DNA of 64,000 nt. It comes from Escherichia coli. GTDB lineage: Bacteria; Pseudomonadota; Gammaproteobacteria; Enterobacterales; Enterobacteriaceae. The stretch lies in NCBI RefSeq assembly GCF_030013595.1, contig NZ_CP122768.1, one strand, 5' to 3'. Positions 18,654 through 53,357 of this stretch are shown here, one piece after another (the stretch's first letter is position 1; the number at the start of each line of letters is the position of its first letter). A program made the translations under genes and the position numbers. A model generated the notes under the pieces. That model saw nothing but the letters and a program-made list of their open reading frames with translations, searched no databases and was not told the origin of the DNA.

Positions 18654-18796
18654 TACCGTTCCGTGCCCCTTCCTGATTCCCGACATAATGAATTGCCTCT
18701 GGCCAGTTGGTGTCGTCGCAAGGTGGCAAATGCGTAGCATCGGGGGACTTCGCCCGTACGCACCAGAGCAGTCATGGCGTCAATTGAGAATCGAAA

Positions 18797-19261
18797 ATGA
18801 ACTTTCATCAGTACTATCCTGTCGACATCGTCAACGGCCCCGGCACTCGCTGCACACTGTTTGTCTCCGGGTGTGTTCATGAATGCCCCGGTTGCTATAA
18901 CAAAAGCACATGGCGGGTAAATTCCGGTCAGCCATTTACCAAAGCAATGGAAGACCAGATCATTAACGATCTAAATGACACTCGCATCAAACGCCAGGGG
19001 ATTTCCCTCTCCGGCGGCGATCCGCTGCATCCGCAAAACGTGCCGGATATTCTGAAACTGGTACAACGAATCCGCGCCGAATGTCCGGGTAAAGACATCT
19101 GGGTGTGGACAGGCTATAAACTCGACGAACTCAACGCTGCGCAAATGCAGGTTGTTGATTTGATTAACGTACTGGTCGACGGCAAATTTGTGCAGGATTT
19201 AAAAGACCCTTCCCTGATCTGGCGCGGCAGCAGCAATCAGGTGGTGCATCATTTGCGTTAG
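18797..19261 (+). CDS. nrdG: Anaerobic ribonucleotide reductase activating protein (154 aa)
   Basis: ORF track; radical-SAM CxxxCxxC (CVHECPGCYN). Confidence 0.95.
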   Translation: MNFHQYYPVDIVNGPGTRCTLFVSGCVHECPGCYNKSTWRVNSGQPFTKAMEDQIINDLNDTRIKRQGISLSGGDPLHPQNVPDILKLVQRIRAECPGKDIWVWTGYKLDELNAAQMQVVDLINVLVDGKFVQDLKDPSLIWRGSSNQVVHHLR

Positions 19262-19552
19262 TCACTCATCCAGCCGTTTAGTCGCGTCTTCATAAACGGC
19301 TGAGTTCTCTCTCTTACCAATAGCTATCACCAACACGAGCAACTCTTTATCGTTAACCTGATAAACCAGGCGATATCCCTGTGTGCGCAGCTTAATTTTG
19401 TAGCAGTCCGGTAAATCCCGCAGTTTAGCCGATGGATTGCGCGGCCTTTTCAGCACATCCTCAAGCTTTTTTTTAAATTGTTCCCGGACTGTCACGCCCA
19501 GTTTTTGCCACTCTTTCAGCGCCCGCGGATCAAACGCCAGCTCATAGTTCAT
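19262..19552 (-). CDS. RelE/ParE-superfamily toxin (96 aa), RelE-like
   Basis: ORF track 19262..19630 trimmed to MNYELAFD start at 19552; strong similarity to E. coli RelE from memory (DCYKIKLR..GYRLVYQV, KRE near C-terminus); stop codon abuts nrdG stop. Confidence 0.8.
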   Translation of the reverse strand: MNYELAFDPRALKEWQKLGVTVREQFKKKLEDVLKRPRNPSAKLRDLPDCYKIKLRTQGYRLVYQVNDKELLVLVIAIGKRENSAVYEDATKRLDE

Positions 19553-40495: not shown

Positions 40496-40867
40496 ATGAC
40501 CCTACGCAAGATTCTGGCACTCACCTGCCTGCTGTTGCCGATGATGGCTTCCGCACATCAGTTCGAAACCGGTCAGCGAGTGCCGCCGATTGGCATTACC
40601 GATCGGGGCGAGTTGGTGCTTGATAAAGATCAGTTTAGCTACAAAACCTGGAACAGCGCGCAGTTAGTGGGAAAAGTGCGGGTACTGCAACATATTGCTG
40701 GTCGCACCTCTGCAAAAGAGAAAAACGCGACGCTGATTGAAGCGATTAAATCAGCGAAGTTACCGCACGATCGTTACCAGACCACCACCATTGTTAACAC
40801 CGACGACGCGATTCCGGGTTCAGGGATGTTTGTGCGCAGCAGTCTGGAGAGTAATAAAAAGCGGTAA
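40496..40867 (+). pseudogene. ytfJ: ytfJ truncated by IS1 (123 codons remain; stop codon supplied by IS1 terminal repeat)
   Basis: Signal-peptide-bearing N-terminus recognised; ORF terminates at TAA inside the IS1 inverted repeat at 40865-40867. Confidence 0.75.
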
Positions 40868-40877
40868 TGACTCCAAC

Positions 40878-41381
40878 TTACTGATAGTGTTTTATGTTCA
40901 GATAATGCCCGATGACCTTGTCATGCAGCTCCACCGATTTTGAGAACGACAGTGACTTCCGTCCCAGCCTTGCCAGATGTTGTCTCAGATTCAGGTTATG
41001 CCGCTCAATGCGCTGAGTATAACGCTTGCTGATAACGTGCAGCTTTCCCTTCAGGCGTGATTCATACAGCGGCCAGCCATCCGTCATCCATACCACGACC
41101 TCAAAGGCCGACAGCAGGCTCAGAAGACGCTCCAGTGTGGCCAGAGTGCGTTCACCGAAGACGTGCGCCACAACCGTCCTCCGCATCCTGTCATACGCGT
41201 AAAACAGCCAGCGCTGACGTGATTTAGCACCGACGTAGCCCCACTGTTCGTCCATTTCAGCGCAGACAATCACATCACTGCCCGGTTGTATGCGCGAGGT
41301 TACCGACTGCGGCCTGAGTTTTTTAAGTGGCGGAAAATCGTGTTGAGGCCAACGCCAATAATGCGTGCACTGGCGCGACAT
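40878..41381 (-). CDS. insB: IS1 InsB (167 aa; normally expressed as InsAB' fusion by -1 frameshift)
   Basis: ORF track; overlaps insA in the -1 frame. Confidence 0.95.
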
Positions 41382-41575
41382 CCGACGCCATTCATGGCCA
41401 TATCAATGATTTTCTGGTGCGTACCGGGCTGAGAGGCGGCGTAAGTGAACTGTAGTTGCCATGTTTTACGGCAGTGAGAGCAGAGATAGCGCTGATGTCC
41501 GGCGGTGCTTTTGCCGTTACGCACCACCCCGTCAGTAGCTGAACAGGAGGGACAGCTGATAGAAACAGAAGCCAC
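41300..41575 (-). CDS. insA: IS1 InsA (91 aa)
   Basis: ORF track; [23 protein letters not shown]... Zn-finger/HTH protein. Confidence 0.95.
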
Positions 41576-41789
41576 TGGAGCACCTCAAAAACACCATCAT
41601 ACACTAAATCAGTAAGTTGGCAGCATCACCATAGAAGTAAACTATCAAAAAACGCTCATTATTAAAATATAACTTATTAGCAATTGAATTTTTGCACTTT
41701 AAATACAATCTCTTTTTATTTATAACTTTTTAGGTTGGGAGAAATCAGGATGGCAGAATCAGGAAATACACTGTTTCTGCCATCTGAAT

Positions 41790-50556: not shown

Positions 50557-51195
50557 ATGCCCGGGCGCTTTGAACTAAAACCAACCCTGGAGAAAGTCTG
50601 GCACGCGCCGGACAATTTTCGCTTCATGGACCCGCTGCCGCCGATGCATCGTCGGGGGATCATTATTGCCGCCATTGTATTGGTAGTCGGATTTCTGCTT
50701 CCATCTGATGATACGCCCAACGCGCCGGTGGTGACGCGTGAAGCGCAGTTAGATATTCAGTCGCAATCACAACCACCGACAGAAGAACAGCTGCGGGCGC
50801 AATTAGTCACGCCACAAAATGATCCTGATCAGGTGGCTCCGGTCGCTCCAGAACCAATACAGGAAGGCCAGCCAGAAGAGCAGCCGCAACCCCCCCAAAC
50901 GCAACCATTCCAGCCAGATAGCGGAATTGATAATCAATGGCGCTCTTACCGTGTCGAACCCGGTAAAACGATGGCACAGCTGTTCCGCGACCACGGGCTG
51001 CCCGCTACCGATGTCTATGCAATGGCGCAGGTAGAAGGCGCGGGTAAGCCGCTGAGTAATTTGCAAAACGGGCAGATGGTGAAAATCCGCCAGAACGCCA
51101 GCGGCGTGGTGACGGGCTTAACCATTGATACGGGGAATAATCAACAGGTCCTGTTTACCCGCCAGCCGGATGGCAGTTTTATTCGTGCGCGGTAG
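50557..51195 (+). CDS. ytfB: OapA/LysM-domain cell-division-associated protein (212 aa)
   Basis: ORF track 50521..51195 trimmed to MPGRFELKP; Pro/Gln-rich linker. Confidence 0.85.
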
Positions 51196-51295
51196 ATGAA
51201 GGGTCAACCAGAAGCCAGCTAAGGAGCGTCTCTTTGATGACCTTACGTCTGGCTTCCAGTGCCTGGGGGGAAACCATACTGATGTGTTGACATCC

Positions 51296-51317
51296 TCCAC
51301 GCCCTGAAGGACGTGGA
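51296..51317. repeat. Subterminal hairpin of the IS element (tnpB-distal end; shared core GCCCTGAAGGACG)
   Basis: tccac-gccctgaagga-cgtgga; 13-nt core identical to the hairpin at 52998-53017. Confidence 0.6.
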
Positions 51318-51329
51318 TCCCTGCTACGT

Positions 51330-52538
51330 TCAGGCTGTCGCCTGAATCATTTCGGTGGGTTCCTGCTTCAACGAGCGGCCTGACTGCACCATCTCTCCAC
51401 AGGCAAGAACGGCGTGCCCCGCCGCTAAAATGTTACGAGCGCCATTTACATCGGCGTTCGCTGTATATCCACATACCTGGCATCTGAATTTAATTTGTGA
51501 CAGGCGATTTTCTTTCGCTGTATGACCACAGCACGCGCAACGCTGGCTTGTGTACGCTGGCGGAACAGCAAGCACCTGACCGCCACGCCAGAGCTGCTTG
51601 TACTCAAGCTGGCGGCGCATTTCATACCAGCCCTGATCCAGTATCGAACGGTTTAAACCTGATTTTGCCCGGACATTGCGCCGCGGCTGGCTGACCGTAC
51701 CCGCTGCTGACTTTGACATGTTGCTGACCTTCAAATCCTCAATGACTATCATTGCGTGGTTTTTGCTGACGGTCGTTGTGACTTTGTGAAGGTAGTCCCT
51801 GCGGATATTTGCGATACGGGAATGCAGTCGCTGTATTTTGCGTTTCTGCTTCTGCCAGTTATTGCTGAATTTGACCTTGCGGCTTAACTGTCGCTGAAGT
51901 CTCGCCAGCTTCTTCTGTTTTTTCTGAAAACTGTTTACAGGCTCAAAGACTGTGCCATCTGACAGCGTGGCGAGTTTAACCACGCCAGCATCCAGCCCGA
52001 CCATTGATGCTGAAGGATGAACCGGAGTTGATACTTCACTTTCTGTCTGAATACTGATGTACCACTTACCGCAGGACTGGCTGACCGTGACATTTTTCAC
52101 AACACCCGTGACCTGACGGCTATTCCGGTAGCGCATCCAGCCCAGTTTCGGCAGAAAAATACGGCTGTTTTCCTGATAGAGCTTAACGCCCTACGGGTAG
52201 CGGAATGCATCATTCTGTCCCCGCTTTTTGAATCGGGGAAAAGCAGCCCGCTTCTGGAAGAAGTTTTTGTAAGCCCGCTCAAGGTCTTTCAGTGACTGTT
52301 GCAATGGCTGTGACGGGGCATCTTTAAGCCATTGCGTTTCAGTGGCATTTTTCCACTCAACCAGCCAGGAAGCCATTTTCCCGTAAGGGATGTATTTATT
52401 ACCGGCCTCATGATTCTCATTCTGAAGCGCCAGAGCACGATTGAAAACGAAACGACATGCGCCTGCGAAGCGCCTCATTTCACGCTCCTGTTGACCACCG
52501 GGTCTTAACTGGAATTTAAATGCCTGTCGTCGTTTCAC
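51330..52538 (-). pseudogene. tnpB: IS605-family TnpB (RuvC-like RNA-guided nuclease family), interrupted by one in-frame TAG
   Basis: ORFs 52191..52538 and 51330..52136 share one frame; my hand translation across the gap gives ...DAFRYP-stop-GVKLYQENSRIFLPKLGWMRYR...; C-terminal Zn ribbon CACCGH...CQVCG; RuvC-like D/E/D residues. Confidence 0.8.
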
Positions 52539-52608
52539 AGGTCAAATGATACTTTGGTCTGTGAAAAAAGAAACCTATATCCGGCGTGGAAGGTATTGTG
52601 TTTTCCTG

Positions 52609-53020
52609 ATGCATGTTCACCTGGTCTTTGTCCCAAATACCGACGCCAGATTTTTGACCATGACGCGACAGAAAAACTACGCACTTACTTTTCAAATGTA
52701 TGTGCTGATTTTGAAGCTGAACTGGTTGAAATGGATGGCGAACCAGATCACGTCCATTTGTTAATTAAATATCCTCCCAAACTGGCGATATCCAGTCTGG
52801 TAAACAGCCTCAAAGGCGTATCGGGTAGGTTACTGCGACGAGATCGACCAGATATTGCAGTCAGGTATTACTACAAAGGCGTTTTGTGGAGTCCTGGCTA
52901 TTTTGCCAGTAGCTGTGGAGGTGCGCCAATATCCGCCATCCGTCAATCCATTGAACAACAGCAAACACCTGGTCAGGTGGAAAACCGCGCCGTATATCCC
53001 CGCCCTGAAGGACGGGGTTT
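52609..53020 (+). pseudogene. tnpA: IS200-type Y1 (HuH) transposase TnpA, -1 frameshifted near N-terminus
   Basis: MHVHLVFVP in one frame, then KYRRQIF...DHVHLLI... (HuH motif) in another; switch within gtcccaaatac homopolymer context; no in-frame stop until 53159, so C-terminus undefined. Confidence 0.7.
52998..53017. repeat. Subterminal hairpin of the IS element (tnpA-distal end)
   Basis: cccc-gccctgaagga-cgggg; same loop and core as 51296-51317. Confidence 0.6.
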
Positions 53021-53033
53021 TACGGCACACCGG

Positions 53034-53357
53034 ATAAACCAGGCCAAGCGTATGCTGGTTGATCAAATAATATCCCCCAAGCGCAGCAATATTAATATAC
53101 ACCTGCAATGGGTCGATATCTGGCTTAAAAATATTGTGTTTCTTCCCTTCATCCAATAAGGATTCCATTAACTGCAAGTGCGCATGATTAATTTCTAAGA
53201 GACGCTGTGATTTTACATAATGCACACCTTTACTTTGGTTTTCACTATGCACAATTTTTAAAAACCAAGGATTAGCAATATAATATATCCTAGGTAAAAT
53301 CGATGATTTTTTCAATGGCTTTTTGTGGCTGGTTAACCTGCTGATTAACAAACGCAC
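53034..53357 (-). pseudogene. ytfA: Truncated ORF, N-terminal about 108 codons, ytfA-like; C-terminus replaced by IS sequence
   Basis: 175-codon ORF 52830..53357 whose last third is antisense to tnpA; identity with K-12 ytfA is from positional memory only. Confidence 0.45.

Follow-up and report, generated by a model that had tools for sequence, protein, structure and literature searches.

A degenerate, very probably non-autonomous IS609 element in ytfA of Escherichia coli, with apparently stepwise lesions in tnpA and a nonsense codon in tnpB

The window, a 64,000-nucleotide segment of an E. coli chromosome that runs from rraB-argF to rplI, contains a complete IS609 element of 1747 bp at positions 51287-53033 on the minus strand. 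The element interrupts ytfA, which is located between ytfB and yjfZ. Its top strand is the minus strand of the window, and its parts follow one another in the order LE, tnpA (reversed), tnpB and RE. The chromosome NZ_CM149870.1 (E. coli HCP5S3_I2, pig faeces) is 100% identical to the window across the 2.1 kb tested, and its PGAP annotation of the locus comprises insQ (TnpB family), tnpA (IS200/IS605 family transposase) and two TetR fragments. The boundaries of the element are set by an empty ytfA site (L006), in which CTGATATG is followed directly by ATAAACCAGG (CCTGGTTTAT and CATATCAG on the minus strand), together with other IS609 copies that match window positions 51287-53038 within different flanks. 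Insertion took place directly 3′ of TTTAT (core TTAT; 53034-53038, minus strand), which stands directly 5′ of LE on the element top strand, and comparison of the occupied with the empty site shows no target-site duplication at the other junction. The two parts of ytfA, both on the minus strand, are a C-terminal fragment of this TetR/AcrR-family pseudogene to the left of the insertion (51179-51286, as annotated by PGAP in the identical record) and a fragment with a TetR_C_29 domain to the right (53034-53328, from the domain match and the empty site). For the latter the PGAP pseudogene call spans 53013-53328, and its first 21 bases overlap LE. The right-hand fragment is also flagged as frameshifted by PGAP in the window-identical record, and ytfA is annotated as a pseudogene lacking its N-terminus even in strains free of the IS.

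The name IS609 rests on near-identity to copies that NCBI lists as "IS200/IS605-like element IS609 family"; the window element shares about 98% nucleotide identity with the copies of IAI1 and CP52E. The IAI1 copy occupies the same ytfA site, has tnpA (WP_000604912.1) and tnpB (WP_001367946.1) in the same divergent arrangement with start codons likewise 7 nt apart, and encodes an intact TnpA of 143 aa and an intact TnpB of 402 aa. Its end hairpins match those of the window copy. Near-identical subterminal imperfect palindromes stand in direct orientation at the two ends of the element, without terminal inverted repeats, as is characteristic of the IS200/IS605 family. The LE palindrome, CCCCGTCC-TTCA-GGGCGGGG on the minus strand (52998-53017), folds as single-stranded DNA with -15.5 kcal/mol (z = -3.3), and the RE palindrome with which it forms a direct repeat (D3), CCACGTCC-TTCA-GGGCGTGG on the minus strand (51297-51316), with -13.6 kcal/mol (z = -3.7). 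At its RE tip the element ends in GATGTCAA at 51287. The RE segment 51287-51325 is identical in IAI1, while LE differs from that of IAI1 by two substitutions (53027 and 53032) in a stretch that also varies among the active-looking plasmid copies. Both end hairpins and the insertion junctions thus appear intact, as judged from these alignments and folds.

The same architecture links the element to IS608 of Helicobacter pylori (structures 2a6m and 2vju), with which it shares the Y1 HuH transposase fold (E 5e-21, residues 11-136 aligned), corresponding positions of the HuH motif and the tyrosine helix, directly oriented subterminal imperfect palindromes and an RE ending in TCAA. Both elements insert 3′ of a TTAC-like tetranucleotide, the target being T-TTAT in the window and TTAC in IS608. 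They differ in gene arrangement, as tnpA and tnpB point in the same direction in IS608 and are divergent in the window IS609, as in IS605. An accessory tnpB is present as in the IS605 and IS608 groups, though with a nonsense codon in the window. With all of the defining features tested found in place, the element is a member of the IS200/IS605 family. Side by side with these features, the window copy has the target TTAT and a putative guide AAAA 5′ of the foot of the LE hairpin (53019-53038, minus strand), and the copy on plasmid pVE362 (L004) has the target TTAC and the putative guide AAAG, which is the IS608 pairing rule. Target and putative guide thus co-vary between the window and pVE362, and the copy on pEC213_2 fitted less neatly.

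The tnpB (insQ) gene at 51330-52538 on the minus strand belongs to the RNA-guided endonuclease family and is a pseudogene, as indicated by Pfam matches, the PGAP note "internal stop" and codon comparison. Its Pfam domains are HTH_OrfB_IS605, OrfB_IS605 and Cas12f1-like_TNB, and the intact allele matches guided_TnpB at 1e-116. In comparison with the intact TnpB of IAI1, codon 116 of the window gene has become amber (52191-52193, Q116*) and 12 other amino acids differ, amounting to 13 non-synonymous against 10 synonymous codon differences. The GTG start of tnpB at 52538 and the ATG start of tnpA at 52546 lie 7 nt apart, so that the promoter of each gene must lie within the other. Both divergent start codons are spanned by a 14-nt inverted repeat, TTTCACAGGTCAAA / TTTGGTCTGTGAAA (52533-52566), which may act as an operator or fold as RNA. 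No Rfam match in this analysis reached its gathering score; sub-threshold matches at 51274-51457 on the minus strand (HgcC with 23.9 bits and E 0.0085, sot0042 and RAGATH-18) overlap the 3′ end of tnpB and RE, the expected place of a TnpB guide (omega/re) RNA.

The tnpA gene is a Y1/HuH transposase gene that a frameshift interrupts after its first beta-strand and before the KYRR motif. Its 5′ part, still in the original frame, covers 52546-52632 on the plus strand, as determined from frame reading, the PGAP start and tblastn; PGAP selects the ATG at 52546 as start codon, and the ATG of the plasmid copies falls opposite a GTG at 52561 in the alignment. In the reading frame set by the ATG at 52546, positions 52609-52635 read ATG CAT GTT CAC CTG GTC TTT GTC CCA (MHVHLVFVP), and the KYRRQIF that follows is in the frame of the open reading frame 52554-53159. 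The 3′ segment in the shifted frame covers 52633-52973 on the plus strand (CC AAA TAC CGA and onward, encoding KYRRQIF through to IEQQQTPG) and is identified by Pfam, NCBIfam and tblastn. With the intact 138-aa homologue of pVE362 as the tblastn query, the match is split into two pieces, one in frame 1 for residues 1-24 (52561-52632, E 2e-9) and one in frame 3 for residues 23-138 (52626-52973, E 7e-69), a result well outside what chance would give. The shifted frame matches Pfam Y1_Tnp (PF01797) at 1.2e-34 and NCBIfam transpos_IS200 (NF033573) at 1e-33, in both cases starting at residue 25 and covering profile positions 11-121 and 17-125, respectively, whereas for the CP52E allele, whose frame is intact, the match extends over profile positions 2-126 of 126. 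The window gene therefore lacks the single uninterrupted reading frame from beta-strand 1 through the tyrosine helix that a functional TnpA has, because of a one-base deletion.

DNA alignments with CP52E, IAI1, pVE362 and pEC213_2, all of which have the ancestral GTCACCAAATAC at this site, place the deletion of a single A at 52632/52633 on the plus strand. The ancestral GTC ACC AAA TAC CGA CGC (V-T-K-Y-R-R) has become GTC-CCAAATACCGACGC, and its first four codons, GTC ACC AAA TAC (V-T-K-Y), read GTC-CCAAATAC in the window. The deleted A belonged to the Thr25 codon ACC, with C's on either side, and the proline of MHVHLVFVP arises from the deletion, the ancestral peptide being VFVTKYRR. A sequence-only reading of the window had located a -1 frameshift between MHVHLVFVP and KYRRQIF, and its coordinates are exact by both the split tblastn match and the DNA alignments. 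That reading had attributed the frameshift to the loss of one base in a short C/A run; one base is indeed lost, but from an ACC codon rather than by a homopolymer slip.

The apparent deletion might instead be a sequencing or assembly error, with the gene in frame in the living strain, a doubt that the sequence-only reading had itself raised. Single-base indels are the commonest assembly error and the chromosome in the source record was assembled by the shotgun approach, yet this explanation is highly improbable, as the ancestral TCACCAAA at the deletion is not a homopolymer and as the exact 65-mer 52596-52660 including the deletion is present without a mismatch in 212 complete E. coli records that stem from unrelated studies. 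Recovery from so many records argues that the deletion is inherited. The carriers come from hosts and sources that include soil, cow, duck and human, and among them VCSW7, C4, HYM1 and VCSW5 are flagged as frameshifted by PGAP. The same stretch with the extra base is found in about 4,500 other records. A 71-mer that also takes in the clone-specific H12Y SNP at 52594 has just two exact matches. Even with the base restored, the window gene would remain without its catalytic tyrosine and its stop codon.

A second way of rescuing the gene would be to take the second-frame open reading frame 52554-53159 for a true variant of the transposase whose N-terminus is naturally distinct. This open reading frame encodes 201 aa from a TTG start with the N-terminus MVCEKRNLY (MVCEKRNLYPAWKVLCFPDACSPGLC); it is the longest at the locus and contains most of the Y1_Tnp domain. 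Its domain match nevertheless begins only at residue 25, without the first strand; all of the intact homologues have their N-terminus in the other frame, that of MHVHLVFV; the exact protein was not found among about 15 billion proteins; and the catalytic tyrosine is absent from it. Such a variant is accordingly among the most remote of prospects. The sequence-only reading had named a homologue matching the MVCEKRNLY frame as the observation that would overturn its interpretation, and the homologues point the opposite way.

The frameshift is accompanied by two further lesions of tnpA, and the lesion-free form at the three sites is GTCACCAAA at the deletion, TAC at 52947-52949 and TAG at 52974-52976. 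At the last of these, on the plus strand, alignment of the copies identifies the former stop codon, which is TAG in IAI1, pVE362 and pEC213_2 (TnpA C-termini QQQTPG/S followed by TAG in IAI1 and both plasmid copies) and CAG in the window, CP52E and VCSW7. As the sequence-only reading had proposed, the natural stop is missing, and the frame continues as a read-through tail (52977-53159, plus strand) across LE into antisense ytfA until the first stop at 53157-53159. The CP52E-type tnpA at ytfA, which PGAP annotates as "missing C-terminus", shares both the TAG to CAG change and the read-through tail; alleles of this type keep the reading frame and the catalytic tyrosine, so that the window allele is two steps further along. 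A 204-aa read-through TnpA is recorded on 105 contigs.

The second lesion concerns the active site. The HuH metal-binding motif is intact in the shifted frame, with His-Val-His at 52749-52757 on the plus strand within DHVHLL (52746-52763), which aligns with DHIHIL of IS608. The catalytic tyrosine codon at 52947-52949 on the plus strand, which is TAC in IAI1, CP52E, VCSW7 and the plasmid copies, is TCC in the window, giving Y130S. In a phmmer comparison with solved structures, the intact IIRQYIEQQ aligns with VVKQYIENQ of IS608 (2a6m, E 5e-21), and the window serine corresponds to IS608 Y127; the nucleophile is thus kept in IS608 and replaced by serine in the window copy. According to PMC3597680, Y127 of IS608 is the nucleophile and joins the HuH motif of the other monomer in a hybrid active site. 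The sequence-only reading had assigned both the HuH motif and the C-terminal tyrosine region to the second frame, and the motif is where it was described, but the tyrosine itself is gone; neither this loss nor the tnpB knockout had been noted. As predicted from the alignment, the change from tyrosine to serine would by itself inactivate TnpA, independently of the frameshift.

Other changes in tnpA suggest that the gene is drifting. With numbering from 52561, the substitutions specific to the window are D6Y (52576-52578), H12Y (52594-52596) and N70K; K46N at 52697 differs from IAI1 and is common to VCSW7. All four, together with Y130S, the one-base deletion and the lost stop, distinguish the window tnpA from that of IAI1, with six non-synonymous or stop changes and one indel against one synonymous change. 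In VCSW7, which carries the same frameshift allele, the second histidine of the HuH motif is replaced by asparagine (DHVNLL, H66N, equivalent to window 52755-52757), which would constitute an independent catalytic knockout within the same pseudogene lineage. The pattern of substitutions and the VCSW7 HuH loss are consistent with relaxed selection on tnpA, and the codon differences in tnpB (13 non-synonymous, 10 synonymous) point the same way.

These data also bear on whether -1 ribosomal slippage at C-CCA-AAT bypasses the frameshift, such that some full-length TnpA containing VFVPNYRR is made. The heptamer at 52632-52638 fits the X XXY YYZ pattern and the shift needed is -1. Against slippage, tnpA is a single open reading frame in intact IS609 and in other IS200/IS605 elements, the heptamer arose as a side effect of a derived deletion, and E. 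coli ribosomes shift poorly on an AAU (Asn) codon in the A site. The deletion lineages later lost catalytic residues (Y130S in the window, H66N in VCSW7), and non-synonymous changes predominate in them, which indicates that there is no selection for a slipped product, and in the window this product would have no nucleophile and a 61-aa read-through tail in addition. Functional bypass of the frameshift is for these reasons very unlikely. It is equally hard to credit that, in the roughly 200 E. coli with the frameshift allele and their catalytic residues in place, low-level -1 slippage restores a trickle of TnpA. If this were true, a transposase gene once expressed constitutively would now be throttled by frameshifting, and the window product would still be dead on account of Y130S.

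Taken together, the locus very probably holds a degenerate, non-autonomous IS609 inserted 3′ of TTTAT in ytfA, in which tnpA acquired at least three independently inactivating lesions stepwise and tnpB a nonsense codon. The first step would have been the stop loss from TAG to CAG, probably the earliest lesion because the CP52E allele has it while still in frame. Deletion of a single A in the Thr25 codon would then have produced the frameshift allele seen in the 212 records, and clone-specific substitutions (the catalytic tyrosine to serine, D6Y, H12Y and N70K) would have followed. This order of lesions derives from four sequences, and recombination could blur it. The occupied ytfA sites comprise an intact form (IAI1), a stop-loss form (CP52E), a form with stop loss and frameshift (the 212 records) and the window clone with its private lesions. 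The tnpA frameshift and the insQ internal stop are already flagged in the RefSeq annotation, where tnpA of NZ_CM149870.1 is described as "frameshifted; incomplete; missing C-terminus", and the case is one of ordinary IS pseudogenisation.

Transposition of IS200/IS605 elements requires a TnpA dimer, which cuts the single-stranded ends by means of the HuH motif from one subunit together with the tyrosine from the other. For IS608 and ISDra2, the dimer binds the LE and RE hairpins of the top strand as single-stranded DNA, the Tyr/HuH cleavage sites are recognised by pairing with guide tetranucleotides 5′ of the hairpins, and a single-stranded circle is excised and then inserted 3′ of the target tetranucleotide. 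As the dimer needs both the HuH motif and the tyrosine, the window copy would be unable to excise or integrate alone. An inactive transposase and an element immobile unless complemented had been proposed from the frameshift and the displaced stop; loss of the catalytic tyrosine in addition makes the predicted loss of TnpA activity a stronger case than that reading supposed. As the cis-acting sites look intact, the copy could move if TnpA were supplied in trans, and mobilisation by an IS609 TnpA is plausible in principle.

An intact 138-aa TnpA is encoded on plasmids pVE362 and pEC213_2, and the 143-aa IAI1 sequence occurs on at least 1000 contigs. The sequence-only reading had suggested a search of the genome for intact copies; no second IS609 copy was found in the window by blastn and tblastn, nor in the window-identical chromosome, which is matched in one place only. 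A weak TnpA-like tblastn match (2330-2443, E 0.17), located within an unrelated hypothetical gene, was taken as chance. Many E. coli, e.g., 1919D3 (L008), carry another IS609 copy in the ydcO-ydcL interval, the K-12 insQ locus, with a tnpA annotated as "missing C-terminus"; with one place per chromosome, this copy is apparently absent from the window strain.

The occurrence of IS609 at ytfA is itself variable. A joined-flank query matched 5,061 genomes, about 1,800 of them with split flanks; the ytfA site is contiguous, and hence empty, in 3273 genomes. The presence of both empty and split flanks indicates that the insertion is a polymorphism rather than a fixed feature. A count of 4306 genomes at 80% coverage or more was rejected as a measure of ytfA-site occupancy because the IS alone makes up 83% of that query.

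For annotation, the window IS609 is a doubly defective fossil whose tnpA and tnpB should both be labelled pseudogenes, and any tally of active IS elements in the strain, or of its sources of TnpA, TnpB or guide RNA, should leave this copy out. The nested lesions provide a small, clean case of stepwise decay of a chromosomal IS and may serve as lineage markers in E. coli; beyond correct annotation the locus has little importance. Elsewhere in the window, a hypothetical protein gene between ytfJ and cysQ (40668-41578, minus strand) carries a frameshift annotation in the RefSeq record that is identical to the window. A RelE/RelB-DinJ type II toxin-antitoxin pair, presumably accessory relative to K-12, lies between nrdG and cybC (18790-19312, minus strand).
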